The position numbers were made by a program, and so were the translations under genes. Of a stretch of DNA of 64,000 bases, positions 2,891-63,898 are shown piece by piece. Source of the DNA: Candidatus Parcubacteria bacterium (GTDB lineage Bacteria; Patescibacteriota; Patescibacteriia; Patescibacteriales; UBA12075); the NCBI GenBank assembly GCA_002869165.1, contig PKTK01000002.1, forward strand, positions 1,235 through 65,234, written 5' to 3'. Every line of letters begins with the position of its first letter. Position 1 is the first letter of the stretch. The notes under the pieces were generated by a model. It was not told the DNA's origin. It made no database searches and was given only the letters and a program-made list of their open reading frames with translations.

Positions 2891-3682
2891 TTACATCTTC
2901 ATTTTAATTAAATCTACCCTTTGCATAAGATAATAGGCAATTCTTTCAACGTCTTTCAAATTTTCCATAGCTCCAAACATGCGAAATTCAATTGTGCCAT
3001 GCACAGTCATACGAATCAACATCCAATTATCTTTTGGATTTCTTTCCCAGCCCTTCTTCTGGTAATAATTAAACATATGTTCAAGAGAAGGAAATACAGG
3101 TGGTTGGCAAACTTCATGTACCTTTCCATAAATTTCAAGCCTTCCTGGAGACATTTCTTCTGCTAGATTCAAAAGATGATTAAACTCTTTTCCCACAAAG
3201 GCATTATAGATATACAAAGCAGTTTTAAAATCAGGCATTCCCACATGAAACTGAGTGGCGATTATCCTCATAGCTGATAATGCTTTTTCTGGCTCCATGG
3301 TCTCGAATACATCATACCTGCCGGTTGGATCAGGATAAAGATTCAGAGGCATATCAGCTGGTGCAATCTGCATGTGAGACATCTTTAGTCCCAATACCCT
3401 GAGCTTGCTAGCAAGTCTTGATCTCTCATACTTCATTCCCACACCAAGATCAAACAACTCACAAGGACCAACCCTATATTCGAGCTGACATTCTGATGGC
3501 TCGTAGCTATACAGATTAAAATCATTCAAATAATCCAAGGCCATAAAAGACTTTGTGCTAAGCTTATCAGTTCTTGCGTCGACCAAGAAAACTTCATCTT
3601 CTATACCCATCAAATATGCTAATTTAGGTTCAAACTCAAATTTACTCTTAAAATCTTCAAAAGTCACTTCTCTCTCAAACAT
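2891..3682 (-). CDS. carboxylate-amine ligase, glutamate-cysteine ligase family 2 (YbdK-like), short
   Basis: LMGIEDEVFLVD, TQFHVGMPD and IRMTVHGTIEFRMFGA match the GIELE / HVHVG / DIRP..GTVEVRV blocks of YbdK-type GCS2 enzymes (alignment from memory). Confidence 0.55.
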   Translation of the reverse strand: MFEREVTFEDFKSKFEFEPKLAYLMGIEDEVFLVDARTDKLSTKSFMALDYLNDFNLYSYEPSECQLEYRVGPCELFDLGVGMKYERSRLASKLRVLGLKMSHMQIAPADMPLNLYPDPTGRYDVFETMEPEKALSAMRIIATQFHVGMPDFKTALYIYNAFVGKEFNHLLNLAEEMSPGRLEIYGKVHEVCQPPVFPSLEHMFNYYQKKGWERNPKDNWMLIRMTVHGTIEFRMFGAMENLKDVERIAYYLMQRVDLIKMKM

Positions 3683-3791
3683 TCTCTCCTCCTTTTATTT
3701 TTAAAAAAGAACTATTGTTTCAATAATTATAAAACTTACATGTTTTTCGTATTTATGTCAACTATTTTTATTGCGCCTATATATCCTTTCT

Positions 3792-3833
3792 ACAAACAAA
3801 AGACCTCAGACGTCCCTGGGACGTCGAAGGTCT
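3792..3833 (-). terminator. strong GC hairpin plus T-run on the minus strand; ends a possible non-coding transcript
   Basis: Minus strand reads agaccttcgacgtcccagggacgtctgaggtct followed by tttgtttgt. Confidence 0.45.
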
Positions 3834-3950
3834 AAATAGCACGAATAGTCCTACAAACAATTCTTGTTATTTCCACCTACTCCGTCTTATTGCGGGGGAC
3901 GGAATTTTAGCGGAGAGGAGGTGAATCTCGTGAAAAATAATTCCAACAAG

Positions 3951-4195
3951 ATCCCCTTCCCTGTCTGCCAGCAGTCAGGCCTCGCTTCGCTCGCCGGGGA
4001 TGACAAAAGAAGAACCCTCCTCACTGTCATTCCCGGCCGAAGCGAAGCGGAGGGGAAGGGAATCTAGGATTTTTCCGTAGAAACTAAACTGTCGCATGCA
4101 AACATTATAGATCTATAAGCACAAAAAAATAATATATTGTGAGTACCGCTTTATCCTGGATTCCCTTCCCTCGCTTCGCTCGCCGGGAATGACAA
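3951..4195. repeat. cluster of three half-copies of the GC-rich TGTCAT/ATGACA MITE-like element
   Basis: ...cttccc..tcgcttcgctcgccggggATGACAA ends at 4006. TGTCATtcccggccgaagcgaagcggaggggaagggaatc spans 4025-4064. Its inverted partner ggattcccttccctcgcttcgctcgccgggaATGACAA spans 4158-4195. The last two flank about 90 bp of AT-rich DNA. Confidence 0.7.
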
Positions 4196-4211
4196 GGGGT
4201 TTTTGCAAAAT

Positions 4212-4254: not shown

Positions 4255-5466
4255 TTATACTATTTTTCTAAAATGAAGTTTTCCTTTTTGCAGAACTCTT
4301 TCTTTGTCTTCTGGTTCTAACTCAAAGTTTTCATCTGTAATCTGTTCGCCATCCAATTTAACCCCACCCTGTTTTATCATTCTCCTAGCTTCTGATTTTG
4401 AAGCAACTAGCTCTGAGTCAAACAAAACATCGATCAAACCTTTCTTCTCTGTTAATTTATATTCTGGGATATCTGTAGGAATTTCTTTTTTCTGAACTGT
4501 TGATACAAATCTTTCCTGAGCTTCCTGAGCTGCCTCTTCACAATAATTGGCTTTTACTATTTCAAAAGCCAATTTCATTTTCATGTCTCTTGGATTGGTC
4601 TTGGGATCTTCCAATTGTTTGTATATTTCCTTCACTTCCTCAAAACTAACTTTGGTAGCTAGCTCGAAGCCAACTCCTATAACACCATCAGCCCAAGACA
4701 TCACCACTCCATACATATTTGCTGGATCCTGATCTAGAAACACTGCATTCCCCTCGCTCTTACCCATTTTCTTTCCTGAGTCATCAGCCAAAAGTTTCAT
4801 GGTCAAAACAAACTTTTCTTTCTTGCCTTCGGCTTTCATGAGGTCTCTGCCAGCCATCATATTGAACATCTGGTCATTACCACCGATTTCCAAATCTACA
4901 TCCATAGCCATAGAATCATAACCCTGAGCCAAAGGATACAAAAACTCATGCAAGTGAATTGGTTTTTCATCCTTGAGTCTTTGTTGAAACATGTCTCGCT
5001 GAATCATTTGCTGAACAGTGAAATTACTTGAAACTTCAATCAAATCTTTGAATGTTAACTTATCACTCCATTCACTATTATATTTAACAAGAGCTGGATT
5101 GTCACCATCAAATTTCAAATATCCATTGGCCTGATCTTTATAGCTTTTGGCATTTTCTAGCACTTCTTCACGAGTCAGCTTCTTTCTGGTCGCTGACTTA
5201 TCAGTTGGGTCACCAATCATGCCCGTAAAATCTCCAATCAAAAATATCACTTCGTGTCCAAGTTCCTGAAACTGAGCAAGTTTATTTATTTGAATAGCAT
5301 TACCAATATGAAGTGATGGAGCACTTGGATCAAAACCACAATACAAACGAATCCTATCTCCGCTCATTAATTTTTTCTTCAAATCTTCTTTATTTGGATA
5401 GATTTTTTCAACACCTCGTTCAAGTAAATCATCAATTTGTTTTTCATCTGTGATAACTTTGGTCAT
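4255..5466 (-). CDS. tyrS: tyrosine--tRNA ligase
   Basis: HIGH-type motif PSLHIGN, KMSKS-type KKMGKS, and a C-terminal S4 domain (SKSEARRMIKQGGVKLDG). Confidence 0.93.
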   Translation of the reverse strand: MTKVITDEKQIDDLLERGVEKIYPNKEDLKKKLMSGDRIRLYCGFDPSAPSLHIGNAIQINKLAQFQELGHEVIFLIGDFTGMIGDPTDKSATRKKLTREEVLENAKSYKDQANGYLKFDGDNPALVKYNSEWSDKLTFKDLIEVSSNFTVQQMIQRDMFQQRLKDEKPIHLHEFLYPLAQGYDSMAMDVDLEIGGNDQMFNMMAGRDLMKAEGKKEKFVLTMKLLADDSGKKMGKSEGNAVFLDQDPANMYGVVMSWADGVIGVGFELATKVSFEEVKEIYKQLEDPKTNPRDMKMKLAFEIVKANYCEEAAQEAQERFVSTVQKKEIPTDIPEYKLTEKKGLIDVLFDSELVASKSEARRMIKQGGVKLDGEQITDENFELEPEDKERVLQKGKLHFRKIV

Positions 5467-5597: not shown

Positions 5598-7034
5598 TTA
5601 TTTCTTCCATCTCCTCTTCCGAAGTTCCCGATGATATTTTATTGCAAATCTATGAGCTTCATCCCTAACTCTTTTGACAATATGTAAAGCTGGGCTAGCT
5701 AGGGATAATTTCAAGGCTTCTTTTTCGCCTGGGAAAAATATCTTGTCAGGTGCGTTAGCCCCACGAAGACCGGATCCCTTGGAAACTGCTATTACCGGAA
5801 TATCCAAGTCATATTTTTTTAGTAATTTAACTGCTACATTGAGCTGTCCCTTACCACCATCAATAATAATCAAATCAGGAAGTGCCCACATCTTCACACC
5901 CCTGTCTGCCGACAGGCAGGCCTCCTCTTTTCCTCCAATTCGGTGAACAGGCGGGTACTCCCCTATCTTAGGGGAGATTTTTTTACTAGTATCTGTTTCT
6001 GGAACAGAGCGTTTCAATCTTCTATCCAAAATTTCTTTGAGCATAAATGTGTCGCTAGCTTGGCCTTCTGATAATTTTATTTTAAATTTTCGATATTCGT
6101 TTTTATCCGGTTCACCATCTCTAAAAACCACCATTGAACCAACTGCATCCCGTCCAAATATATTTGATATATCAAAACCTTCTATTCGTTCAGGAATTTT
6201 TGGTAGAGCTAATACTTTGGCTAGCTCTATAACATCAGTCGCATACTTATCAATCAAATTAATGATTTCCGTATGCTCAAGAACTTTGCGAATATTCATC
6301 ACCTCAAACTTCAAGAATTCAATTTTCTTTGCATTTAATTCATATTTTGAATCACGTGTGAGTGATTCATCCACCGCACCGAAGGTGCTTTGGGCAGACT
6401 CAAGCGATTTTATTTCCTTCTCCTTATATTTTAAAATAATATTTTTATTACCTTGTAAAAAAAGCACAATTTGACTAACTATCTTGTCGTATTCACTTTT
6501 AGTTTCTGGGTATTCACACATCCCTAAACACTTCCCTATTCTATGATATAGACAAACTTTCTTGGGTAGTCTAGCACAAGACCTATATGGCCAAATACGT
6601 CTAATTACTTTCAAAACTTCTTTTACGGCAATACCAGACACAAAAGGACCAAAATAAGTCCCAGCCTTGTCCAAAGTCCTAGTTGAATATACTCGAGGAA
6701 ATTCTTCTTCGGTCGAAACCTTAATATACTGATGACGCTTGTCATCGCGCATATCGATATTGAAAGGTGGTTGATGTTTTTTGATCAAATTTGCTTCAAG
6801 TAACAATGCCTCGATTTCTGTATCAACTTCAATCCATTTTATCTCGGCTATTTCTTTCATCATGGCTCGTTTGGCAGGAGTATGATTGGTAGACTCGCGC
6901 CAATAAGACAAAACTCGAGACTTTAAATCCACTGCTTTACCCACATACAAAATTTCACCTTTCTTGTTGAAATATTGATAAGAACCAGGTGTTTTGGGAA
7001 TATTTAATTTCTTTACTTTCTCAATGTTTAACAT
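5598..7034 (-). CDS. uvrC: excinuclease ABC subunit C, short form without the C-terminal HhH domain; carries two in-frame GC-rich repeat insertions
   Basis: GIY-YIG N-terminus (PGSYQYFNKKGEILYVGKA), Cys cluster, endonuclease V-like domain (IEGFDISN ... RDEAHRFAI). Inserts lie at 6351-6400 and 5899-5927. Confidence 0.9.
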   Translation of the reverse strand: MLNIEKVKKLNIPKTPGSYQYFNKKGEILYVGKAVDLKSRVLSYWRESTNHTPAKRAMMKEIAEIKWIEVDTEIEALLLEANLIKKHQPPFNIDMRDDKRHQYIKVSTEEEFPRVYSTRTLDKAGTYFGPFVSGIAVKEVLKVIRRIWPYRSCARLPKKVCLYHRIGKCLGMCEYPETKSEYDKIVSQIVLFLQGNKNIILKYKEKEIKSLESAQSTFGAVDESLTRDSKYELNAKKIEFLKFEVMNIRKVLEHTEIINLIDKYATDVIELAKVLALPKIPERIEGFDISNIFGRDAVGSMVVFRDGEPDKNEYRKFKIKLSEGQASDTFMLKEILDRRLKRSVPETDTSKKISPKIGEYPPVHRIGGKEEACLSADRGVKMWALPDLIIIDGGKGQLNVAVKLLKKYDLDIPVIAVSKGSGLRGANAPDKIFFPGEKEALKLSLASPALHIVKRVRDEAHRFAIKYHRELRKRRWKK

Positions 7035-19903: not shown

Positions 19904-20542
19904 CTATTCTTTAATCCCATCCAAATTAACATCATAAAGAATTTTTTCTTGAACGTGATTGTACTTAAGTACTTCATCTTTTTCAAACCAAATTTTAATT
20001 TCCTTTTCTGCTTCATCAACTGCACCAGATGCGTGAATCAAATTTCTAACACTTCTTTGATCAGTATCAGCCAAAGCATATGAATCAAGAGTAAAATCGC
20101 CTCTAATTGTTCCTACGTCAGCTAGAAGTGGCGCAGTTGCTCCAGTAATTTTTCTAACCAATTCTACTGCTGCATGCCCTTCCCAAATCATAGCTACTAC
20201 TGGCCCTGAACTTAAATACTTAGCATTTGACTTTAGAACTGCCCAGCCATTTTCTTTGTTTGTTTTGTATGGACTTTCCTCGCCTTTTTTTTCATATGCA
20301 GCCCGAGCTTTTCTGCCAACTTCCTCGATCCATTCATCTCCCCCAACTTCATAATAATGTTTAGTTGCCATGTCTTCATCTGGCATTACCATTTTCATTG
20401 CTACTAACTTTAGACCAACTCTTTCATATCTACGGATAATTTCACCGATCAATGATCTTTGAACTCCATCAGGTTTCACAATAACCAATGTTTTTTCGTT
20501 TTTCATAAGTAAATTAAAACCATTTGCCTTATATTCAAACAT
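19904..20542 (-). CDS. ndk: nucleoside-diphosphate kinase with an internal insertion
   Basis: KTLVIVKPDGVQRSLIGEII and the active-site region NLIHASG. The likely true start is Met13 (20506, MKNEKTLVIVKPDG). Confidence 0.8.
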   Translation of the reverse strand: MFEYKANGFNLLMKNEKTLVIVKPDGVQRSLIGEIIRRYERVGLKLVAMKMVMPDEDMATKHYYEVGGDEWIEEVGRKARAAYEKKGEESPYKTNKENGWAVLKSNAKYLSSGPVVAMIWEGHAAVELVRKITGATAPLLADVGTIRGDFTLDSYALADTDQRSVRNLIHASGAVDEAEKEIKIWFEKDEVLKYNHVQEKILYDVNLDGIKE

Positions 20543-25751: not shown

Positions 25752-25965
25752 AAAAAAATTCGTCCTAGTTTCAGTATTAATAAATACTGAAACTAGGACG
25801 AATTTTCTTCGCGGTACCACCTAGATTCTCTGTTTTTTAACAAAGCTCTCAAACTGCTATAACGGGCTTACCCGGCAGGTTCTAGTCACTTTTTATTCAA
25901 GCTTTCTTCCTGCTCCTTCCTCAAGTGTTGGCTTGAGTCAAATGGATTTAAATATTTAATTGTAT
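25752..25965 (-). promoter_or_regulatory. T-box riboswitch leader of aspS
   Basis: Minus strand reads AAUCUAGGUGGUACCGCGAAG, a near-consensus T-box. CUAGG can pair with CCUAG of the terminator arm. The terminator has 21-nt arms (25758-25778 / 25784-25804) plus U7. A GAC triplet lies in the candidate specifier region. Confidence 0.85.
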
Positions 25966-27130: not shown

Positions 27131-27961
27131 TTATTTTGTTAATATTATATTCCCCTCTCGTGTGACAGCTACGCTATGTTCAAAATGTGCGCTAACAGAA
27201 CCATCAACTGTTTTGAAAGCAAAAGTTTTTTTATCTTCTTTTACTTTGAAGTTACCAGTAGTGGTCATAGGCTCAATAGCCAAGACCATACCTGGCTCTA
27301 AAGTAACATTTTCAATTTCAGCGCCAAAAATATAATTAGGCACATGAGGCTCCTCATGAAGTGAATGCCCTACTCCATGTCCAACTAAATCTCTAACCAC
27401 TGAAAATCCATTAGCCTCTACATGAGTCTGTACGGCTTTTGCTATATCACGCAAAGTATTACCTGGTTTAACTTGATCGATTGCCAAATCCAAAGATTCT
27501 TTAGTTACCTTAAGAAGTTTTCTAAGCTCTGTACTTATCTTGCCTACTGGAACAGTTCTAGACATATCAGTATAATACCCTCCTAGCTTAGAATAAGGAT
27601 TTTTAGGCCAATATTCTGGAATATCAGTCTTGCCATCATGCAACGGATATTCTATAACAAAATCAATACTAACAATATCTCCTGAATTAAGCTCCCTAGA
27701 AGGTAAAGCTGGGGCATGAACTACTTCATCATTAACAGCTGTAATTATAGCGGTCGGAAAAACTAAGCCCCCGCCCATAGGAAAATTCTTTTGCGCTGGT
27801 CTAGCACCTGCTTCCTTTATAAGCTTGCAAGCCAATGTTTCTAAATCACCAGTGAATACTCCAGGTTTTACTGCCTCACAAAGATTATCCATGATAGAAC
27901 GTAAAACCTTGCCACTTTCTCGCAACACCTCTATTTCTTGTTTTGTTTTTTTTATTATCAT
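27131..27961 (-). CDS. map: type I methionine aminopeptidase
   Basis: Metal ligand blocks DIVSIDF, GHGVGHSLHEEP, LAIEPM and EHSVAVT. Confidence 0.9.
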   Translation of the reverse strand: MIIKKTKQEIEVLRESGKVLRSIMDNLCEAVKPGVFTGDLETLACKLIKEAGARPAQKNFPMGGGLVFPTAIITAVNDEVVHAPALPSRELNSGDIVSIDFVIEYPLHDGKTDIPEYWPKNPYSKLGGYYTDMSRTVPVGKISTELRKLLKVTKESLDLAIDQVKPGNTLRDIAKAVQTHVEANGFSVVRDLVGHGVGHSLHEEPHVPNYIFGAEIENVTLEPGMVLAIEPMTTTGNFKVKEDKKTFAFKTVDGSVSAHFEHSVAVTREGNIILTK

Positions 27962-33134: not shown

Positions 33135-33259
33135 TAATTTACCTAAAAATAGTAAAAAATAACAAAATAAATTTTTGTTAATACTCTAATATTATAACAT
33201 ATTTATACAAAAAAATAAAAAAACAAATATTTTTACGTATATGTTTAAACATAATCATA

Positions 33260-33289
33260 TGTACATTAAAATATACATTTTAATGTACA
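33260..33289. repeat. 30-bp near-palindrome TGTACA-TTAAAA-TATACA-TTTTAA-TGTACA
   Basis: Second copy of the TGTACA triple-box seen at 2811-2840. It lies 126 bp upstream of the ABC ATPase start. Confidence 0.8.
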
Positions 33290-33419
33290 CACTAGACCAG
33301 TCAAATAGTTTTAAATTATAACAAAACAGCAATTACACATACTTGCTGTTTTTGACAAAATTATTATTTATTATATTTTTGCATTACAAAAGTTTTACTC
33401 TTTCTTATTTACTAGAGAC

Positions 33420-40382: not shown

Positions 40383-40934
40383 TTATTTTTTATCTTCTTC
40401 TTTCTTAAATGGAAATCCCATTAGATCAAACAGTTCTTTTCCTTCTTCTTTGGTTTTTGCACTAGTTACTATAGTAACTTCTAGGCCAAAAACATTATCA
40501 ATTTCATCAGCTTGAATTTCAGGAAAAGCAGTATGCTCCTTGAATCCAATATTTAAATTACCACATTTATCAATATTCTTTGCATCAATTCCTCTAAAAT
40601 CTCTAACTCTTGGGAATGTTACATTAACCAATCTTTCCAAAAAGTCATACATCCTTTCTCTTCTAAGTATCACTGAAGCTCCAACTACCATTCCTTCTCT
40701 GATTTTAAAAGCTGAAATTGATTTTTTAGCTTTAGTTAAAACTGGTTTTTGACCTGAAATTCTAGTTAAAGCATTTACCACATTCTCAATATAAGCTTTT
40801 TCCTTACTGTGTCTACCCATCCCTACATTAATTACTACTTTTTCAACTTTAGGTATTTCAAGAACATTAGAGTAAGCGAACTTCTCTTTTAGTTTCTTGG
40901 TTATTTCTTTTTTGTATAAATCTTTTAATTTCAT
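40383..40934 (-). CDS. rplE: 50S ribosomal protein L5
   Basis: LKDLYKKEI...NVGMG...FPEI. Confidence 0.93.
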
Positions 40935-41043
40935 AATTGTTTTATAATCCTAATACTACAAATGATATCCGAATACTACAAATCTATTTTCTTAAACATT
41001 CGGATATGCCCCGTTTGTAGTTGGGGCTCGCTGAAGGCGATAA
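40935..41043. repeat. operon-spacer element, family B (ATATCCGAAT ... ATTCGGATAT)
   Basis: About 80 percent identical by eye to 43915-44024. Minus strand: mini-hairpin TCGC-cttca-GCGA, GCCCCAACTACAAACGGGGC, then a 10-bp inverted repeat ATATCCGAAT/ATTCGGATAT. Confidence 0.75.
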
Positions 41044-41364
41044 CTAATCTACTACTTGATCACATTTCTTACAAACTCTGAATTTTTTCTTACCTTTAGA
41101 TCCTTCGTTTGTTTGGTGACCTATTCTAGTTGGTTTTGAACATTTAGGACAAACCAACATCACATTTGAAATATTCATTGCAGCCGGGAATTCAATTCTT
41201 TGCCCTTTTTCACCTTGTCTTCTTGGTCTCATGTGCTTAATAGACAAATTCAAACCTTCCACGCTAACACGGTTTCTATCTGTGAAAATTTGCAAAACCT
41301 TGCCTGTTTTTCCTTGGTCTTTACCAGCTAAAATTATTACTTTGTCACCTTTCTTAATATTCAT
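41044..41364 (-). CDS. rplX: 50S ribosomal protein L24 (with C-terminal zinc-ribbon-like CPKC...CKKC)
   Basis: IKKGDKVIILAGKDQGKTGKV KOW motif. Confidence 0.92.
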   Translation of the reverse strand: MNIKKGDKVIILAGKDQGKTGKVLQIFTDRNRVSVEGLNLSIKHMRPRRQGEKGQRIEFPAAMNISNVMLVCPKCSKPTRIGHQTNEGSKGKKKFRVCKKCDQVVD

Positions 41365-41368
41365 AGTT

Positions 41369-41517
41369 CTACGAATTACGAATCCGTTACGAATTTACGA
41401 ATCCGCTTATTTAATCTCTTTGATTATTTTATAACTAATTTTTATTTTGGCCTTTAATACTCCTCAATACATTTATTAAAATTATTCGTAAATTCGTACA
41501 GTTTCGTATTTTTGTAG
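41369..41517. repeat. operon-spacer long hairpin element, family A (TACGAAT words)
   Basis: 34-nt arms at 41369-41402 and 41484-41517 (15 bp perfect TACGAATTTACGAAT/ATTCGTAAATTCGTA) with an 81-nt loop. Paralog at 43077-43226. Confidence 0.8.
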
Positions 41518-41526
41518 CCTATTTTT

Positions 41527-41898
41527 TTACAATACTTCTGGAGCCAAACTTGCAATCTTGAAAAAGCCTGCTCTTCTCACTTCTCTGGCGATTGGGCCAA
41601 AAATACGAGTTGCTTTTGGTTCCTTTTTCTCTTTATCAATAATTACACAAGCATTTTCATCAAATCTTAAATATGTGCCATCCTTTCTTCTAATTTCTTT
41701 TTTGGTTCTTACTACTACAGCATGCAAAACGTCACCTTTTTTAATAGCTGTATGTGGGGTCGCTTGCTTAACAGTTACTGTGATTATTTCACCCACTCCA
41801 GCATATCTTTTCTTATATCCACCCAAAACCCTGATACACTGTACTTTACGTGCTCCTGAATTGTCCGCTACTTTAATTTTTGATTCTACTTGTATCAT
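41527..41898 (-). CDS. rplN: 50S ribosomal protein L14
   Basis: [27 protein letters not shown]. Confidence 0.95.
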
Positions 41899-42662: not shown

Positions 42663-43067
42663 TTATTTTTTGACAACTTTACACTTCACTGGAAGTTTGT
42701 AAGCGGCTAATCTCATTGCCTCTACAGCCATCTTTTCTTCAACACCATCCATTTCAAACATGATCATGCCAGGTTTTACTACTGCTACATAGTGATCAAC
42801 AGCACCTTTACCTTTACCCATAGGCATTTCACCACCTTTGGCTGTTACCGGTTTGTCGGGAAAAATTCTGATCCATATTTTACCACCACGCTTCGTATAT
42901 CTAGTCATAACTCTTCTAGCAGCTTCAATTTGACGTGATGAAACCCAGCAAGGCTCCATAGTTTTTAGTGCATATTGACCAAAGCTAATGGTAAGCTTTC
43001 TAGAAGCTTTTCCGCCTCTTCTGCCTTTATGTGATTTTCTGTATTTAGTTTTCTTTGGCATTAACAT
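42663..43067 (-). CDS. rplP: 50S ribosomal protein L16
   Basis: [16 protein letters not shown]. Confidence 0.95.
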
Positions 43068-43076
43068 ATTTGTCTC

Positions 43077-43226
43077 CTACGAATTACGAATCCTTTGCGA
43101 ATTTACGAATCCATCTATTTAATCTATTTGATTATTTTATAAACTATTTATTTTAAATTGCTAGAAAATACTTCCAGGTACTACGCAAATTTATTCGTAA
43201 ATTCGTACCGATTCGTATTTTCGTAG
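43077..43226. repeat. operon-spacer long hairpin element, family A (paralog of 41369-41517)
   Basis: 34-nt arms at 43077-43110 and 43193-43226 with an 82-nt loop. The loop shares ttataaaataatcaaa.agattaaata with the other copy. The right arm abuts the TAG stop of rpsC. Confidence 0.8.
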
Positions 43227-43227
43227 C

Positions 43228-43914
43228 CTATTTTTTCTTTCCGATTACTTCTCCTTTTTTATCGTCTGTTTTTTCAAATTTATCACCTTTATAAATCCAA
43301 ACTTTGATTCCGATCACACCGTAAGTGGTATTAGCAATACCTCTGGCATAGTCAATATCAGCTCTTAGAGTATGAAGTGGAATCTTGCCACTGGTCAACA
43401 TTTCTGATCTGGCAATTTCAGCACCATTCAATCTTCCTGATACAATCACTTTCACTCCTAAGGCGCCAGCTCTTTCTACTCTAGACATAGTTTGCTTCAT
43501 TACTCTTCTAAATGGCATACGCTTTTCTAGATCTAAAGCCATAAGTTGTACGTTAATCTGTGCGCTCAAGTTAGGTCTATCGAATTCGTAAATATTTAGA
43601 TTTATATTGCCTGGTTTATAATTTTTTAAAAATTTAGTATGAACTTTTTTCTTTAAATCATCAGCACCTGAACCACCTCTACCAATAATAATTCCTGGTT
43701 TTGCTGTATAGATTCCTACATTAACTTTTTTAGCATCTCTTTCAACCTCTACCCTGTCGACACCAGCTTCTCTTAATTCTTTCATTAAAAACCTTCTCAT
43801 AGCAACGTCTTGCTGAACGTTCTTGCTATAGTCTTTTCCGCTGGCATACCATTTTGATGGCCATGCTTTACTTACACCGATTCTAAAAATTTTTGGATTA
43901 ATCTTTTTTCCCAT
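43228..43914 (-). CDS. rpsC: 30S ribosomal protein S3
   Basis: [15 protein letters not shown] domain, [10 protein letters not shown]. Confidence 0.95.
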
Positions 43915-44024
43915 ATTTTTATAATACGAATACTACTAATTATATCCGAATACTACGAACCTTTTTTATAAATCAATTCGGATATGCCCTGTTCGTAGTT
44001 AGGGCTTCCCGAAGGAAACATCAT
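43915..44024. repeat. operon-spacer element, family B (paralog of 40935-41043)
   Basis: Minus strand: TTCC-UUCG-GGAA tetraloop hairpin right after the rplV stop, GCCCTAACTACGAACAGGGC, then the ATATCCGAAT/ATTCGGATAT inverted repeat. Confidence 0.75.
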
Positions 44025-44600
44025 TTAACCGCTTTTTCTTCTGAAAACTTTTGACCCAAATCCCTTAGTGCTAGTTCCTTCGATCTTGGTATTTTTACCT
44101 TTTCCTTCTCCTCTTGGATCAACTATTTTTTTTCCTTTTTCTTCAGTATTTTTTTTATCTTTTTCTTTCTTGGTTTTAAGCTTAGCGTCTCCTTCTTCTT
44201 TTGCCTTAGCTCCCAATGAAATTGGGGCTTCAATTGTTTGTTTCTTTGCTTCCTTTGCGCCTGAATCAACTAGCTCGCCTAAAATTAAATTTATATGTGA
44301 AGTTCTCTTTCTAATAGGAGTGGCTCTTCCTCTTGCTCTTGGCATCCATCTTTTCATGGTTACACCTTCATCAACTTTGATTTCTTTCACGAATAAATTA
44401 GTTTCATTAAGTTCATATGTATTTACAGCATTAGCAATTCCTGACTTAATAAGCTTAGCAACTACTTCTGTTGCTTTCTTATTCATAAACTTTAATTGAT
44501 TCAAAGCATCATCAACTTTTGCACCACGAACCACATCCACAACCAATCGTGCTTTTCTTGGTGAAATTCTTACATTTTTTACGCTTGCTTTAACTTCCAT
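44025..44600 (-). CDS. rplV: 50S ribosomal protein L22 with a Lys-rich C-terminal extension
   Basis: RISPRKARLVVDVVRG core; 191 aa. Confidence 0.92.
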   Translation of the reverse strand: MEVKASVKNVRISPRKARLVVDVVRGAKVDDALNQLKFMNKKATEVVAKLIKSGIANAVNTYELNETNLFVKEIKVDEGVTMKRWMPRARGRATPIRKRTSHINLILGELVDSGAKEAKKQTIEAPISLGAKAKEEGDAKLKTKKEKDKKNTEEKGKKIVDPRGEGKGKNTKIEGTSTKGFGSKVFRRKSG

Positions 44601-45000: not shown

Positions 45001-45158
45001 CTAATACGCGAATTAATTACTAATTTACGAATTCTATTTCTATAGCTTCTATCCCTTTATTTTATTTTTTAATAACCTGCTTTATCTTACGAATTTACTA
45101 ACTCTATCAAAGGAAATATTTAATAGTATTAGTAAATTCGTAAGCAATTAGTTATTAG
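45001..45158. repeat. operon-spacer hairpin element, family A-like (TACGAAT / TACTAAT words)
   Basis: Perfect 16-bp pairing between cttacgaatttactaa (45086-45101) and ttagtaaattcgtaag (45129-45144). The outer arms 45001-45032 / 45127-45158 are imperfect. Confidence 0.7.
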
Positions 45159-45166
45159 TTTAGGAT

Positions 45167-46012
45167 TTATCTTTTTTTCTTACTTGATTTTCTTCTAATA
45201 ATCAGTTTATCACTTGGACGATTTTTCTTTCTGGTCTTAACTCCTAGAGCTGGTTTACCCCATGGAGTTTTTGGATGTTTCAAACCGATAGGTTGGTTAC
45301 CTTCACCACCACCATGTGGGTGATCGACTGGATTCATAGCTGTACCACGAACCACTGGTCTCCAGCCTAACTTTCTTTTTCTGCCGGCACTTCCTAGTTT
45401 AATATGTCTTTTATCAGGATTACTTGCTTGACCAACAGTACACATACATTCTTTTTTGATCAATCTAATTTCTCCTGAAGGCATTTTTATTTGTGCGTAT
45501 TTATCTTCTACACCCATCACTTGAACACTGTTTCCTGCTCCTCTAGCAATCTTTGCTCCAAAACCTGGCTCAAGTTCTACATTATAGATATCAACTCCAG
45601 CAATTAAAAATTTTACTGGTAAAGCATTTCCTGCTTTGATCTCAATCTTTTTTCTTGAGCTTAAAATTGTTTCACCAACTTTTAAACCTATTGGTGAAAT
45701 AATATATCTTTTTTCACCATCAGCATAATGAAGTAATGCTATTCTAGCACCTCTGTTTGGATCATATTCGATAGAAGCAACTTTAGCTGGAATGTCATAT
45801 TTATCTCTTTTGAAATCAATTATTCTAAGAGCTCTTTTCACTCCTCCGCCTCTATGTCTAATTGTAATTCTTCCTTGAGAGTTTCTTCCGCTGATTTTCT
45901 TTTTGGCTTTTACCAATCTTTTTTCCGGTGTTGTTTTTGTAATATCTACAAAATCATCAAATCTTGCTTGACGTCTTCCCGGGGTTGTAGGTTTTACTCT
46001 TTTAACTGCCAT
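45167..46012 (-). CDS. rplB: 50S ribosomal protein L2
   Basis: [21 protein letters not shown]. Confidence 0.96.
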
Positions 46013-47304: not shown

Positions 47305-48147
47305 TTATTTAGACTCTTCTTTCTTAGCATCTACTTTTTCTTTTGCTTCTATTACTTCTTTTTCCACTTCTTTAGGAGTGGTAGCCTCTTTTGCATCACG
47401 GGTAAGTGATTCATCCGCCGCACCAGAGGTGCTTTGGGCGGACTTATCTTTCTCTGCAATAGTCTCTTCTTTCTTTACTTCTTCTTTCTTTTCTTGTTTA
47501 GTGATTTTTAGTTCTCCTTCACCAGCAATTAACACAAGTCCATTTCTAGCACCAGGAATACCACCTTTAATATATAAAATATTATTTTCTTGATCTACTT
47601 GAACAATCTCTAATGTTCTCATAGTTACTTTGTCACCACCAGTTCTTCCACCCATTCTTGTGCCTTTGAACACGTGAGCTGGTCCAGTAGCGCCAATAGA
47701 ACCCGGCATTCTTGATTGATCTTTATTACCGTGTTGTTCGTTTGTTCCTTTGAAGCCATGTCTTTTAACAACACCTTGAAAACCTTTTCCTTTTGAAGTT
47801 CCGGTAATTTGAATCTTGTCACCAGCTTCAAAAGTATCAACTTTCACAACATTTCCTAATTCTATATCAGTATTAACCTCCTCTACTCTGAATTCTCTTA
47901 AATTATGTAACGTTGTTTTGTTATCTATGTTAACACCAGCTTTTTTCAAATGCATCTTTTGTGGCTTGTTTATATTCTTTGTCTTTCTCTCACCAAAGCC
48001 AAGTTGAACAGCATTATAACCATCTTTTTCCTCAGTCTTTAGTTGGGTAATTCGACATGGACCTGCTAAAACTTTAGTAACAGCAATCACTTGATCACCT
48101 TGCCAAATTTGAGTCATTTCTTGTTTTTTCCCTATGATAAATTTCAT
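47305..48147 (-). CDS. rplC: 50S ribosomal protein L3 with a C-terminal extension containing an in-frame repeat unit
   Basis: FKGTSKGKGFQGVVKRHGF core. The tail carries SAQSTSGAADESLTRDA, encoded by 47395-47444. Confidence 0.93.
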   Translation of the reverse strand: MKFIIGKKQEMTQIWQGDQVIAVTKVLAGPCRITQLKTEEKDGYNAVQLGFGERKTKNINKPQKMHLKKAGVNIDNKTTLHNLREFRVEEVNTDIELGNVVKVDTFEAGDKIQITGTSKGKGFQGVVKRHGFKGTNEQHGNKDQSRMPGSIGATGPAHVFKGTRMGGRTGGDKVTMRTLEIVQVDQENNILYIKGGIPGARNGLVLIAGEGELKITKQEKKEEVKKEETIAEKDKSAQSTSGAADESLTRDAKEATTPKEVEKEVIEAKEKVDAKKEESK

Positions 48148-48403: not shown

Positions 48404-48525
48404 CTAATTACTAATCATTTACAAATTTACTAATATTTTTACCTAATATTAGTTAATTTAAAAACAAAATCTGTAGTGAACAAAATTAATCAGAATTAGT
48501 AAATTCGTAATTAATTAGTAATTAG
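48404..48525. repeat. operon-spacer long hairpin element, family A-like
   Basis: 31-nt arms ctaattactaatcatttacaaatttactaat (48404-48434) and attagtaaattcgtaattaattagtaattag (48495-48525), inside the 386-bp rpsJ-rplC spacer. Confidence 0.7.
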
Positions 48526-48533
48526 TTTAGTTT

Positions 48534-48887
48534 CTACATTTTAATTTCCACATCAACTCCTGCTGGAAGACTAAGGTTGGTTAGTTCTTCAACGGTTTTT
48601 GCTGTTGGTTCAACAATATCAACTAATCTCTTATGAGTTCTCATCTCATATTGATCTTTAGCTGATTTGTGAACAAATGTAGAACGATTTACTGTATATT
48701 TCTTCTTCTCTGTTGGAAGCGGAATAGGACCAAAAACTTGAGCACAGCTTCTTTGAGCAGTGTCAATAATAGTTTTTGTTGATTGATCAATAATCTTGTG
48801 ATCAAAAGCTTTGATTTTGATACGAATCTTTTGACCAACTGTTCCACTTTCATTTTTTTCTTCTTTTTTTGCTTTTTTCTCTACCAT
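48534..48887 (-). CDS. rpsJ: 30S ribosomal protein S10 (short Lys/Glu-rich N-terminal extension)
   Basis: [16 protein letters not shown]...[12 protein letters not shown]. Confidence 0.94.
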
Positions 48888-50864: not shown

Positions 50865-50899
50865 GTGTGTGATTTATTTATTATATAGTGAATATTGGC

Positions 50900-50993
50900 C
50901 TACGAAAATACAAATCAATACGAATTTACAAATCGGATAATTACGAACATTATAAAATTATTCGTAAATTTGTATTAATTTGTATTTTCGCAG
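50900..50993. repeat. operon-spacer hairpin element, family A-like (TACGAAA / TACAAAT words)
   Basis: 33-nt arms at 50900-50932 and 50961-50993. I count 29 of 33 positions complementary. Confidence 0.7.
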
Positions 50994-51015
50994 ACTTTTC
51001 CGTAAAAAAATCCGG

Positions 51016-53091
51016 TTATTTCTTCTCTGCAGTAATTTTTTCAGCAATATTTTTTGGTACTTCTGAATAATGTAAAAATTCCATAGTATAATTTGCTCTA
51101 CCTTGAGACATACTTCGTAGCTGTGTAGCGTAACCAAACATTTCAGATAATGGAACACTGGCATTTACCACCTTTGCATTTGCTCTATCTTCCATTTGTC
51201 CAATTTGACCACGTTTCGAATTCAAGTCTCCAACAATACTTCCCATATATTCTTCAGGGGTAACAACTTCAACTTTCATGATTGGTTCAAGTAGAACTGC
51301 ATTTGCTTTTCTACAAGCTTCTTTAAAACCAAAGATTGCTGCCATTTTAAAAGCTGATTCAGAAGAGTCAACTTCATGATATGAACCATCATATACTGCA
51401 ACTTTAACATCTACCATAGGAAAACCAGCAATAACACCAGAATCCATAGCCTCTTTAATACCTTTTTCTATCGCTGGAACATAATCAGCTGGAACAACAC
51501 CACCTTTGATCTCGTTTAAAAATTCAAAGCCAGCACCTTCTTCTTGTGGTTAAACTCTAAGCCAACAATGACCGTATTGTCCCCTGCCCCCTGATTGCTT
51601 GATGTATTTACCTTCTGCTTCAGCTGTTTGTCTGATTGTTTCTCTGTATGATACTTGAGGCTGACCGATATTAGCTTCTACCTTAAACTCTCTTTTCATA
51701 CGATCAATAATAACATCCAAATGAAGTTCTCCCATACCTGAAATCAAAGTTTGATTTGTTTCCTCATCAGTTTCTACTCTAAATGTTGGGTCTTCTTCAG
51801 CAAGTTTTTGCAAAGCAAGTCCCATTTTTTCTTGGTCTGCTTTTGTTTTAGGTTCAACCGCAATCTTAATAACAGGCTCTGGAAAAGTAATTGACTCCAT
51901 CAAAAGCTTTCTTGATTCATCACAAAGAGTATTACCAGTCACTGTTCCTTTTAGACCAATTACAGCAGCAATATCACCTGCATACACTTCACTAACTTCC
52001 TCTCTGTGATTGGCATGCATTCTTACAAGTCTTCCAATTCTTTCTTTGTTTCCACTTGAAGTGTTGTATACATATGAACCAGATTTTAATACTCCAGAAT
52101 AAACTCTCACAAAACAAAGTTTACCAACAAATGGATCAGTGGCAATCTTAAAAGCAAGTCCAGCAAAAGCTTCATTATCACTTGCTTTAACTGGGATCTC
52201 TTTTGTCTCATCATTTATATCCAAACCAACTAGCTCTTTTACGTCTAGTGGAGATGGAAGATAGGCAATCACAGCATCAAGCGCATGTTGTACGCCGATA
52301 TTCTTAAGAGCAGATCCTGCCATAACTGGAAAAAGTTGAGTTGCTAATACTCCCTTTCTGATAGCTCCTTTTAATTCTTCTACAGTAATTTCCTGTCCAT
52401 CAAGATATTTTTCGGTCAAAGCATCGTCAACTTCTACCACTCTTTCAATCATTTCATTTCTTAATTCTTCACATTTTGCTTTAATGTCTTCAGGAATGTC
52501 AATTTCTACTATTTGCTCACCATGCATTCCTTCAAATTTGTAAGCCTTCATAAGAATAAGATCAACAATACCACTTAGGTTGTCTTCAGCGCCAATTGGA
52601 AATTGGATAGCTACAGCGTTTGGATTCAATCTATCTCTGATTGATTTAAGTGACATATCAAAATCACCACCTAGCTTATCCATCTTATTTACAAAACAAA
52701 GTCTAGGAACATTATATTTATCAGCTTGTCTCCAAACTGTTTCAGACTGAGGTTCAACACCAGCAGCACCATCAAATACTGCTACCGCACCATCAAGCAC
52801 ACGTAAAGAACGCTCTACTTCTACAGTAAAGTCAACGTGACCTGGAGTATCAATAATATTTAAACGATGATCTTTCCAAAAGGCTGTAGTAGCAGCTGAA
52901 GTGATAGTAATACCTCTTTCTTTTTCCTGCTCCATCCAATCCATATCAGACTCACCATCATGAGTTTCTCCAATTTTATGTTTTTTACCAGTGTAAAAAA
53001 GTACCCGTTCAGTAAATGTGGTCTTCCCCGCATCAATGTGAGCCATGATACCTATATTTCTGGTTTTTTCAAGTGAATATTCTCTAGACAT
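51016..53091 (-). pseudogene. fusA: elongation factor G interrupted by a single in-frame TAA (51550-51552); otherwise full length and colinear
   Basis: [18 protein letters not shown], ...[46 protein letters not shown]... Both track ORFs (51550..53091 and 51016..51447) are in the same frame (105-nt offset). The 'pseudogene' call is only the literal code-11 reading. Confidence 0.85.
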
Positions 53092-60240: not shown

Positions 60241-63200
60241 ATGAAAACTACTAACCACCCGGGAGATAAAAAACCGGATATACTTTCAAAGGAAGAATAC
60301 TAAAAAAATCTAAACGAAAAATTAGACAAAGGACTAAAGAAGACAGAAAAATCTGTGATTGGTTTTTTTATCCGAAATTTTCGTTTTACATATCTATTAC
60401 TCCTAACCATGATTTTTCTTGGGACATATTCTCTTATGACTCTTCCTAAAGAGTCTGAACCAGAGATCGAAGTTCCTTTTGGTGTGGTGACTACAATATA
60501 TCCAGGAGCAAATCCTACTGATGTTGAAGAACTTATTACCAATAAGATAGAAAAGGAAATAAATAATCTAGACAACTTAAAGATATATACTTCTAGCTCA
60601 GGGGCTGGTTTTTCCTCTATCTTTGTAGAATTTGAAGCTGAAGCTGACTTGCAAGAATCTTTTAGAAAACTAAGAGAAGCTGTTGATAGAGCTGAGCCAG
60701 AACTACCTAGTGATGTTGAAAATCCACAAGTATCTGAAATTAATTTCAATGACTTTCCAATTGTAACCTATTCTTTGGTTGGCGACTATACAGATGTGGA
60801 ATTAAAAGATTACGCGAATATTATCAAAGATGAGCTCGAAACAATATCTGATGTTTCAGAAGTTGATATTTTAGGTGCTCTTGAACAAGAATTTCAAATT
60901 ATTGTAAATGAGAAAAAACTTAATTCATACAAGCTAAATTTATCAAGTCTAAGCCAAGCTATCAGTTCTGCAAATTTTTCCTTACCAGCTGGAGATATTG
61001 ATGTTGATGGCTTTACTTATGGCATTAGAGTAAAAGGGCGTTTTACAAGTATCGAAGATCTTGAATCAATTGTAGTGACATCTCTTGATGGAACTCCTAT
61101 TCTTCTGTCTGATGTAGCACAAATCAGTGATTCATTCAAAGAAAGGAATACAATTTCAAAAATTGGTTTTTCTGATACACCATCAAAAAATACAATTTCT
61201 TTACAAATCAGAAAAAAAACTGGTGGAAATATCTTGAAGATCGTTGACAATGCCAATCAAAAGATTGATGAAATCCAAAATAGTAATTTAATTCCAACTG
61301 ATCTAGAAATCCTAAAAACCAACGATAATTCAATTTTTATCAAAGATGATATTAAAACTCTCGGTACTAGTGGTATTCAAACTGTTATTCTTATTACCTT
61401 GATTCTTCTTATGGTGCTTAGTTTGCAAGGTGCTATCATCACAGCTCTAGCTGTACCATTTGCTTTTCTAACTGCATTTATCTTTTTAAATCTACAAGGC
61501 ATGACCTTAAACTCAATGGTGCTTTTTTCACTAGTACTATCTCTTGGTCTTATGGTTGATAATGCAATTGTAATTATTGAGGGTGTTAATGAATATATAT
61601 CCAAGCACAAAAAGAATTCCTATGAAGCTGCTATGCTTTCAGTGTGGAATTTTAAGTGGGCAATCACCGCTGGAACCTTAACTACAGTATCTGCATTTTT
61701 ACCCATGCTTCTTGTTTCAGGAATCATGGGCCAGTACATTGCTACCCTACCTAAAACTATTACCGTTACTTTACTCTCTAGTTTATTTGTAGCGTTAGTT
61801 ATCATTCCTACTTTAGTAACTAGATTTTTGAAAGTAAAAGTAAATGGAAATGCTAAACATAGAGATAAAAAAAGACATCTATTTATAGAAAATAAAATTT
61901 CAAAGCTACATATTAAATATGAAGCAATACTAAGAAATATTTTGCCATATAAGAAAAAAAGGAGAAGAATCATTGCTATATCATGGATTGTTTTTTTCTT
62001 GGCTGTATCTGTTCCAATAAGTGGTCTTATGAAAATTGAAATGTTTGGTGACATGGACCTTGATTATTTCTATGTAAATATCGAAACTCCTGTAGGGACT
62101 AGTCTAGAAGCTACTGAAAGGATAGTGGCTAGCACAGAAGAAATTGTTAGAAATATTCCCGAACTTGATAACTATGTGTTGAATGTTGGGGCATCTGCTG
62201 CTTCTGGTTTTGCTGGAGATACTGGTGCTACCGCTACTCACCTAGCAGGCGTTACCGTAAATCTAGTTGACCCTAGTGAAAGAGATAGAAAAAGTTATGA
62301 AATTGCGGATTCTCTTCGTGATCAGTTTGCTTCTATTCAAGGAGCTAAATTTTCAGTAACAGAGCTTACTGCTGGACCTCCAACTGGAGATCCAATTGAA
62401 GTTAGAATATCCGGAGATGATTCTAGTACCATTGCAGACATTACCGCTCAAGTTCTTGACTGGATGAATAATAAAGAAGGTGTAATAAATGCGGAAGACA
62501 ATCTAGAAAATTCAGCTGGAGAATTTACTTTTGAAATAAATAAACAAAAAGCCAACTACTACGGGTTAAATACTTTATCAATCGCCTCAGCTCTACGAAG
62601 CGCTAAATATGGAGCTTCGGCTGGAACTGTAAATGTTAATGGTGAAGATGTTGATATTACAGTAAAATACGATGATTCAGAATTCCAAACTATCAACGAC
62701 CTGAATGAAATATTACTTACAACCGCCACTGGAGAAAGTATTCCTTTAAAAGAAGTTGCCTCGGTTACATTAGAACCTGCTCTACTTTCCATTAGCCATA
62801 GAGATGGTGATGAAACAGCCATTGTAAGCGCCGACACTGAAGCTGGCGCAAATTTACAAGACATCTTAGCTGATTTTGATGAATACCAAAGTAAAATAGA
62901 CCTACCAGAAGGTTATTCTATTTCTGTTGGTGGAGAAGTTGAGGACATACAACAATCATTTACATAAATATTCTTATCAATGATTTTATCTGTTGTATTG
63001 ATTGCAGTTATCTTGGTCTTACAGTTTAACTCATTCAAACAACCATTCCTAATTCTATTTACTGTACCGCTTTCGTTTGTCGGTGTAATATTTGGTTTAA
63101 ATTTACTACTTATGCCGTTTTCATTCCTAGCCTTTATTGGTATAGTTTCTTTATCAGGAATTGTAGTAAATGACTCAATCGTATTAGTTGACAGAATAAA

Positions 63201-63456
63201 TAAAAATATCGATAATGGTATGGAATTTATTGACGCAATTGTTGAAGGTGGCATCTCTCGTATGCAACCGATATTCCTAACATCTCTAACAACCATTGCT
63301 GGTATATTTCCATTGATATACGCTAATGAATTTTGGAGAGGTTTTTCTATAACTGTAACCTTTGGTCTAATATTTTCAACATTTCTAATGTTATTTATGA
63401 TTCCAATATATTATGTTAGTATGTGTAGAAAGGACAAGTGCCAAACATTAAAATAA
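60241..63456 (+). pseudogene. RND (AcrB/HAE-type) efflux permease with in-frame TAA at 62965-62967 and possibly at 60301-60303
   Basis: ORFs 60355..62967 and 62980..63456 are in one frame. The protein is colinear across the stop (...[49 protein letters not shown]). The ATG at 60241 is in frame with GTG 60355, so the 5' end is uncertain. Confidence 0.8.
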
Positions 63457-63852: not shown

Positions 63853-63898
63853 AAAATGGGTATTAATAGGGTATTAATACCCTATTAATACCCATTTT
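63853..63898. repeat. perfect 46-bp palindrome (GGGTATTAATA x2 and its complement)
   Basis: aaaatgggtattaatagggtattaataccctattaatacccatttt equals its own reverse complement. Confidence 0.85.

Follow-up and report, generated by a model that had tools for sequence, protein, structure and literature searches.

Why should two unrelated housekeeping genes of one bacterium carry the same short, GC-rich sequence inside their reading frames? This question is raised by a stretch of 64,000 nucleotides (nt) of contig PKTK01000002.1 (assembly GCA_002869165.1, positions 1,235 to 65,234), which comes from a Candidatus Parcubacteria bacterium of the Patescibacteria, or candidate phyla radiation (CPR). We refer to this whole stretch as the window. 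The genes are uvrC and rplC, and what they have in common is a unit of 50 to 54 nt laid out as two adjacent hairpins, which we call A and B. The explanation we favor, with a little more confidence than doubt, is that the unit is a low-copy selfish or neutral repeat that is copied within genomes and tolerated only in permissive linkers. Two covariance models were used in the searches: R1 describes the whole unit and R2 describes hairpin A alone. The relevant features of the window are as follows.

5598..7034, minus strand: uvrC, 478 amino acids (aa), with GIY-YIG, UvrC_M and RNase H-like endonuclease domains; hypervariable linker 1 contains the unit.
47305..48147, minus strand: rplC, ribosomal protein L3, 280 aa; a variable linker rich in lysine and glutamate (K/E), which leads from the L3 core to the conserved terminal helix, contains the unit.
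6345..6398, minus strand: repeat copy 1, a 50-nt core (6349-6398) followed by AAAA (6345-6348), in frame in uvrC and encoding SAQSTFGAVDESLTRDSK (UvrC residues 213-230); R1 75 bits, E = 7e-17.
6370..6398, minus strand: hairpin A of copy 1, outer stem TCTGCC/GGTGGA, bulge CAAA, inner stem GCACC/GGTGC, loop TTC; R2 39.5 bits.
6349..6368, minus strand: hairpin B of copy 1, GAATCAC-TCACAC-GTGATTC, a 7-bp stem with a 6-nt loop.
47389..47442, minus strand: repeat copy 2, a 50-nt core (47393-47442) followed by AAAA (47389-47392), in frame in rplC and encoding SAQSTSGAADESLTRDAK (L3 residues 236-253); R1 74.2 bits, E = 1e-16.
47414..47442, minus strand: hairpin A of copy 2, perfect outer stem TCCGCC/GGCGGA, bulge CAAA, inner stem GCACC/GGTGC, loop TCT; R2 44 bits.
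47393..47412, minus strand: hairpin B of copy 2, GAATCAC-TTACCC-GTGATGC, with one A/G mismatch.

The original prediction, made from the letters of the window, had reported a match at 44 of 50 positions between 6351-6400 and 47395-47444 with in-frame translation on the minus strand. Direct comparison of the sequences as first quoted gives exactly this number, and the two quoted stretches are translated as SAQSTFGAVDESLTRDS in the uvrC open reading frame (ORF) and as SAQSTSGAADESLTRDA in the rplC ORF. With repeat finding within the window the pair grows to 56 nt (6345-6400 and 47389-47444), which are 88% identical. A 50-mer of the same composition would match at 44 or more positions somewhere in the window, on one strand or the other, with a probability of about 4e-16. 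The GC content is 54% for the uvrC copy and 58% for the rplC copy against 33% for the window, so the unit is, as predicted, far richer in GC than its surroundings. Both copies are in frame inside long minus-strand ORFs and encode the peptide SAQST(F/S)GA(V/A)DESLTRD(S/A)K. We found no third copy in the window at up to 15 mismatches, and unfiltered searches of it with R1 and R2 recovered only these two (75 and 74 bits), the next best match scoring 10.8 bits. The same models found none in 4.4 kb of the contig beyond the window, giving a total of two copies in 68.4 kb. The repeat is also present in three independent assemblies of the organism (the 151-kb contig NODE_58 of ENA ERZ794999, JGI 3300007102 and Logan SRR5894289), and a strain variant (L003), whose rplC is 99% identical to that of the window, carries it as well; an assembly artefact is therefore excluded.

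Written on the coding strand, the unit reads TCCGCC-N4-GCWSC-N3-GSWGC-GGCGGA-T-GAATCAC-N6-GTGATTC and is usually followed by AAAA. The core is 50 nt long, and with the A-run it amounts to 54 nt, or 18 codons. Hairpin A has an outer stem of 6 bp (TCCGCC/GGCGGA), a one-sided bulge of 4 nt, an inner stem of 5 bp and a loop of 3 nt; hairpin B, with a stem of 7 bp (GAATCAC/GTGATTC) and a loop of 6 nt, follows after a single base. The GCACC-nnn-GGTGC hairpin noted in the original prediction is present in both window copies, but it makes up only the inner part of the first of two hairpins. As read from the sequence, the unit is free of stops in two of its three frames on the sense strand and in one of three on the antisense strand. 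The copies vary mostly in the loops and the bulge, and the changes seen in stems are compensatory. In copy 1, pairs 3 and 4 of the outer stem are U-G and G-U, respectively, which can form in the sense strand only.

We identified further copies in three metagenomic contigs, in answer to the suggestion that the repeat be sought elsewhere. The first contig (L002, Logan SRR22388293) comes from a Parcubacterium other than the source of the window, the two L3 proteins being 66-68% identical. It carries the unit in the rplC tail (SATSSEGAADESLARDSK), after an (E)DK codon pair as in the window L3, and its inner stem is GCTCC/GGAGC where the window has GCACC/GGTGC, a compensatory swap of A-U to U-A. 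The second (L004, JGI Ga0172380_10038473) has the unit in uvrC linker 1 of another Parcubacterium (protein P0029, 58-62% identical); its inner stem is GCTGC/GCAGC, and the unit is read in another frame, which is still open and yields the peptide NPPGAALQRRMNHSHVIQ. The original prediction of one shared peptide fails on this copy. L004 was the sole match in a subfamily-neutral scan of JGI metagenome contigs. The third contig (L005, JGI Ga0399990_035435) came from a profile search that covered 1.84 billion representative proteins and returned one further true carrier, a fragment of 32 aa. Here a full copy (44.5 bits) directly follows the TAATAA stops of nusA, in frame with that gene, and hairpin B shows another compensatory change (GAATCGC/GCGATTT). 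Three decayed copies, consisting mostly of hairpin A, are located in the K/E-rich tail of NusA and in an N-terminal insertion. Beyond the TAATAA of nusA (L005:1780-1975) the frame runs on for another 39 codons, which include two further copies of the repeat, and a separate ORF of 32 aa is called from the final 32 codons; this gene end looks like a recently truncated tail, or possibly a case of read-through.

Other searches returned chance matches or nothing. A metagenome scan with a pattern degenerate at the peptide level and a word search with the two peptides joined both came back empty; the former did not recover the source contig and the latter did not recover the window UvrC, so these two negatives carry no weight. 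GTDB representative genomes scanned with GATTCATCCNCCGCACCNNNGGTGC gave one chance match (Brevibacterium); the source genome is not among the representatives, and the fixed GCACC/GGTGC stem of this pattern means that the negative covers the window subfamily only. A scan of viral contigs gave 11 matches, none to the whole unit under R1, and we read all of them as chance; the best (L013) is a partial match around hairpin B with 23.8 bits and E = 0.0005. There was no BLASTN match in phages and plasmids. A protein of 172 aa in the representative library (P0241) has only SLTRDAK in common with the unit and was likewise rejected as chance. It consists of FQSLTRDAKPSN recurring every 25 or 49 residues and is almost certainly a translated CRISPR array.

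Is it the peptide or the nucleic acid that is conserved? Judging from the sequences, the hairpin-forming nucleic acid is the conserved entity, either constrained or recently copied, because L004 reads its copy in another frame, compensatory changes in the stems keep the pairing at the cost of the peptide (ST[F/S]G becomes SSEG), synonymous positions of the unit are as conserved as its other positions, and the full copy of L005 stands behind two stop codons. In the four best copies 98.6% of stem cells are paired, compared with 24-60% when the partners are slid, which is suggestive, although four sequences are too few to be decisive. Two pairs of the inner stem have changed on both sides, A-U/U-A and C-G/G-C, and the outer stem of the window uvrC copy stays intact only by way of its U-G and G-U pairs. 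Additionally, the unit is 76-86% identical between genomes whose host-gene DNA is 62-71% identical overall and 39-56% identical at third positions.

The distribution of the unit among orthologs is patchy. Among the 120 best UvrC matches the carriers are the window protein (P0001) and P0029 only, and among the 120 best L3 matches they are P0121, which is the 99%-identical strain variant, and P0132 only. The nearest UvrC orthologs (P0002-P0007, 65-69% identical) and the nearest L3 orthologs (P0122-P0131, 65-75% identical) lack it, as does P0036, which is 80% identical to the carrier P0029; the carriers are not one another's nearest relatives. The proposed alignment of orthologs thus did not reveal the same residues in all of them, and with the copies found in other contigs neither of the two observations named as refuting the original prediction was made. 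The two uvrC copies differ in reading frame, and their offsets are a few codons apart. The window uvrC copy matches the window rplC copy at 43 of 50 positions, with the CAAA bulge and the GCACC stem in common; same-gene copies from different genomes match at 38-40 of 50. By this measure the copies group by genome and not by host gene. This grouping and the patchiness together require copying or gene conversion within genomes, with gain or loss on a short time scale.

We examined the position of the unit in its host proteins with AlphaFold2 models built from ortholog alignments. The window UvrC has hundreds of UvrC homologs in Patescibacteria. It ends at the RNase H-like domain and lacks the C-terminal helix-hairpin-helix of canonical UvrC, as do its CPR orthologs (407-542 aa). 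In the model, a helix (197-218) and a second helix (229-254) are joined by a low-confidence turn (predicted local distance difference test, pLDDT, of about 57), and the unit (residues 213-229) forms the tip of this helical hairpin, where the UVR region usually lies. The claim that it falls in the UVR coiled-coil region is therefore right as to position, but Pfam detects no UVR domain in this protein. In the L3 model, residues 220-261 have a pLDDT below 50 and the unit (residues 236-253) is within the disordered linker of the C-terminal extension, where it had been placed originally; the terminal helix (259-278) corresponds to the widely conserved (T)PE(E/Q)VEKEVVEAKEKV motif. Both regions are hypervariable in length among orthologs. 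The models thus place the unit at structurally permissive sites in both proteins. The original prediction had also called both hosts essential; uvrC is not strictly an essential gene.

The unit is not the only GC-rich hairpin found in these linkers. In linker 2 of uvrC (5868-5976, minus strand, residues ~346-383) we found an in-frame GC-rich segment that encodes ISPKIGEYPPVHRIGGKEEACLSADRGVKMW and contains the hairpins CTCCCCTA-AGA-TAGGGGAG and CCTGTC-GGCA-GACAGG. Compared with the solved structure of Bacillus UvrC (3c65), it is an insertion of about 35 aa inside the RNase H-like domain, with an AlphaFold pLDDT below 50, and orthologs carry other GC-rich peptides at this place (PLLxKEG, CLPAGR, VIARNEAQRSDAAIS). 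The tails of L3 in other Parcubacteria are similar in this respect. One gene (L023:226-1137) has four copies of AGACGCAA-N4-TTGCGTCT read as VETQNVAS or VETQDIAS, another (L024:341-1180) has GTAGAGACGCGCCGCGGCACGTCTGTAC read as VETRRGTSVH, and a third (L026:5143-5997) has TCCTCCG-N9-CGGAGGA read as SSSAKATEDK; such GC-rich peptides are found in many of the 120 L3 homologs. Given these other in-frame hairpins, the sites are therefore general sinks for hairpin-forming inserts, and this favors permissive tolerance as the cause of the recurrence of the unit.

We compared the unit with several known systems. Rickettsia palindromic elements (RPEs), to which the original prediction had likened it, are described as repeats of about 100-150 bp that form ten families, in Rickettsia only, and occur in tens of copies per genome, with 44 intragenic copies in R. 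conorii (Ogata et al. 2000, as summarized in the review PMC10969869). Like RPEs, the unit is a palindromic repeat of an AT-rich bacterium with a reduced genome; it occupies the reading frames of housekeeping genes that are unrelated to one another, where it adds a peptide that the fold can accommodate, and no transposase is known for either. In-frame, translated copies at tolerant sites are what we observed in uvrC and rplC, and in line with the tail of nusA. Unlike RPEs, the unit is 50-54 nt long with identity that ends at its borders, short of the RPE length; it comprises two hairpins, is read in two frames and occurs in Patescibacteria. We saw 2 copies in the 68.4 kb searched, against the tens that RPEs have in a whole genome. 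The best reading is that the unit would work like RPEs as a new, much smaller family, a comparison based on published descriptions of RPEs; as far as behavior goes, the analogy holds.

The GC clusters of yeast mitochondria (GC42; PMC4478555) are organellar, high in copy number, mostly intergenic and associated with an AG target dinucleotide, and double-hairpin elements of Allomyces have two hairpins each (Paquin et al. 2000, as cited in PMC4478555). The unit is similar to both in being a short GC-rich hairpin sequence in an AT-rich genome (54-62% GC against 33%), with stems conserved over loops, and in that neither a mechanism of spread nor an element-encoded enzyme is known for any of them; the resemblance is one of function only, and the sequences are unrelated. 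Unlike GC clusters, it occurs in bacteria and in few copies, in each case within a gene or in line with one, and has no consistent target. Small non-autonomous repeats such as the QMITEs of Coxiella (PMC5896051) and ERIC/BOX can also lie within ORFs and add peptide segments, as the unit does. However, miniature inverted-repeat transposable elements have terminal inverted repeats, target-site duplications and an origin in insertion sequences, and the unit has neither the repeats nor the duplication. Repetitive extragenic palindromes and the bacterial interspersed mosaic elements built from them (REP/BIME; PMC3733652) are GTAG- or CGTC-tagged, extragenic, high-copy palindromes mobilized by the transposase RAYT. 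They resemble the unit as GC-rich imperfect palindromes of 20-40 nt with bulges, often paired in composite units, but the unit consensus has no GTAG or CGTC tag, lies in or in line with genes and is found twice in 68 kb; there is no RAYT/Y1 transposase among the window genes. ARAGORN and Rfam revealed no origin from tRNA, tmRNA or a known RNA, and Rfam gave no gathering-level match in the window, the best on the unit being 13 bits (E = 3.3). Full-text literature, the coverage of which is incomplete, yielded no description of in-frame hairpin repeats in CPR/Patescibacteria.

How, then, did the unit come to lie in these genes? Under the explanation that we favor, the copies would represent one family of small GC-rich double-hairpin DNA repeats in AT-rich Parcubacteria genomes. 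They may spread within a genome by a non-autonomous, transposition-like process or by recombination between A-rich tracts coding for lysine and glutamate, and would survive only where 18 extra codons are harmless, such as disordered linkers, loop tips and the tails of housekeeping proteins. The unit would be transcribed and translated passively, its short polar peptide being set by whichever of the two open sense frames it happens to occupy. We infer that the repeat propagates itself and has no use to the host, being selfish or neutral; the identity of the repeats, the covariation of the hairpins, the use of two frames, the patchiness, the similarity within genomes and the permissive location are observations.

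Several results weigh against this explanation. We found no clean pair of filled and empty sites among orthologs of up to 80% identity. In the closest comparison, between the uvrC genes of L004 and L025 (80% identical; L025 is, like L002, from SRR22388293), the linker with the unit is longer by only about 9 codons (27 nt), and the window UvrC linker is about 10 residues longer than in its nearest orthologs; in both cases the flanks, K/E codons in the former, are unalignable. No target-site duplication is consistent across the five junctions, and the flanks of the five copies have only A-richness in common (AG or AA on the 5' side, AAAA or AAGA on the 3' side). Terminal inverted repeats are absent, since the ends TCCGCC and GTGATTC are not complementary and each hairpin is internal, and neither the 64-kb window nor the extra 4.4 kb holds a transposase-like gene. 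The copy number, 2 in 68 kb, is very low. Random insertion would also not be expected to place the sole match of the unbiased JGI contig scan in uvrC linker 1 again. Finally, all copies are in the sense orientation, decayed ones included, and stem changes on the sense strand comprise 15 G-U against 4 A-C (p = 0.02), subject to a possible mutation bias and to the non-independence of the nusA copies within one gene. An mRNA structure under selection would account for the sense-only orientation and the G-U excess at least as well as selfish DNA would. The original idea of a mobile, RPE-like element inside ORFs thus stands with regard to an in-frame, structured nucleotide repeat in unrelated genes; as for mobility, no empty site, target duplication or transposase was found.

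The strongest alternative, which we nevertheless consider unlikely, is that selection maintains the double hairpin for a cis-acting function in the sense mRNA, with the peptide as a by-product. It could act as a stabilizing or processing signal, as a ribosome-pausing element or as the site of a trans-acting factor in A-rich tracts coding for lysine and glutamate. Besides orientation and the G-U excess, this proposal draws on the outer stem of the window uvrC copy, whose U-G and G-U pairs are possible only in sense RNA, on the compensatory changes in both hairpins, on a unit far better conserved than the surrounding synonymous sites, and on the recurrence in different lineages at the same two sites, uvrC linker 1 and the L3 tail, the one unbiased metagenome match included. 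However, the great majority of close orthologs do without the unit, no Rfam family matches it, and the G-U excess could be explained by a bias of C-to-T mutation on the non-template strand. Several copies are tandem derivatives within one gene and hence not independent, the copies within a genome are closest to each other, which would require copying or gene conversion in any case, and the unrelated hairpin families in the same linkers look like permissiveness rather than a specific signal.

A wider version of this proposal seems to us somewhat less likely still. Here the unit and the other in-frame GC-rich linker hairpins of Parcubacteria L3, UvrC and NusA would all be selected sense-strand mRNA elements, which could protect or punctuate long A-rich lysine/glutamate tracts or bind a lineage-specific factor. 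If so, the translated disordered regions of CPR housekeeping genes would contain a layer of RNA signals, and the recurrence in uvrC linker 1 and the L3 tail would reflect function and not selfish spread.

It is also improbable, and a shade more so, that the unit is an old linker sequence that is not mobile at all, inherited vertically with many losses and subject to gene conversion between A-rich repeats. The same genes and regions do carry it in lineages that are 58-68% identical, both L3 copies are preceded by the (E)DK codon pair (GAT AAR), there is no clean insertion boundary or target duplication, and the within-genome similarity of 43/50 would fit concerted evolution. But carriers that number 2 of 120 for UvrC and 2 of 120 for L3, and that are not nearest relatives, would demand very many independent losses. 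The uvrC copies with their different frames and shifted offsets, and a third host, nusA, with tandem decayed copies, are also difficult to reconcile with vertical descent, and a unit identity of 76-86% would be hard to keep at 39-56% third-position identity without constraint or recent transfer.

We regard it as very doubtful that the unit is a protein-binding site on DNA (an operator of the form TGAATCAC-N6-GTGATTCA) or a terminator of antisense transcription. Hairpin B is a near-perfect inverted repeat of 7-8 bp whose spacer is 6 bp, dimensions that suit a dimer operator, but the copies are located in the middle or at the 3' end of coding regions and away from promoters, and the hairpin B changes of L005 keep the pairing and not the sequence. 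The LexA box reported for Patescibacteria is of the GAAC-N4-GTTC type, unlike the unit. LexA and other operators were rejected on the intragenic position and the pairing-preserving variation. An intrinsic terminator was rejected as well, with the hairpin followed by an A-run on the sense strand. On the antisense strand of L004 and L002, and only there, the GC-rich hairpin is followed by TTTT or TTTAT; both window copies lack the T-run (GGCAGACTCAAG, GGCGGACTTATC). Finally, we give next to no credence to the peptide SAxSxxGAxDESLxRDxK being a short functional motif common to UvrC and L3, despite four copies with the same frame and peptide and polar residues that suit a linear motif in a disordered region, given that the frame change in L004 largely refutes it, that the other evidence for nucleic-acid conservation set out above speaks against it, and that the search of 1.84 billion proteins added only the 32-aa fragment.

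Palindromic repeats translated in frame are a textbook oddity of Rickettsia, and a small family of them in the CPR suggests that the phenomenon is general to reduced, AT-rich genomes. Hairpin families that crowd the linkers of L3, UvrC and NusA would explain part of the hypervariability in length, and the odd GC-rich peptides, of CPR housekeeping proteins. In-frame inserts of this kind distort alignments, domain calls and phylogenetic markers, of which L3 is a standard one. If the hairpins are functional in mRNA, they would constitute a signal of a new kind within coding sequence.

We also made several observations elsewhere in the window. The ORF for nucleoside diphosphate kinase (19904-20542, 212 aa) and the one for a methionine aminopeptidase-like protein (27131-27961, Peptidase_M24, 276 aa) are each matched by their Pfam family in two separate stretches, which hints at further internal insertions in housekeeping genes. 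The intergenic region of about 500 nt between the ORF at 2891-3682 and tyrS (4255-5466) contains several strong GC-rich hairpins at 3790-4210 (-17 to -23 kcal/mol), together with two copies of CTCGCTTCGCTCGCCGGG(G/A)ATGACAA (~3978-4006 and ~4169-4197) and GTCATTCCCGGCCGAAGCGAAGCGGAGG. The ribosomal-protein cluster has unusually long intergenic spacers that contain mutual repeats at 79-92% identity, located as follows.

40925-41050 and 43905-44030: spacer repeat.
41360-41530 and 43065-43240: spacer repeat.
50865-51020: spacer repeat.
45115-45175 and 48482-48542: spacer repeat.

These spacers also contain motifs of the TACGAATTTACGAAT type and internal complementary segments (ACTACAAA...CCGAAT and ATTCGG...TTTGTAGT), and the repeats may be repeated promoters or processing signals. 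Four very long, perfect, AT-rich palindromes (25757-25800, 63853-63896, 2805-2848 and 33249-33292) are all intergenic; two have stems of 18-19 bp (-28 and -27 kcal/mol), and the other two have the motif TGTACATTTTAATGTACA in common. Lastly, an AcrB-type (ACR_tran) transporter is encoded by two adjacent plus-strand ORFs (60355-62967, 870/908 aa, and 62980-63456, 158 aa) that match the same Pfam family, which suggests a frameshift, an internal stop or a pseudogene.

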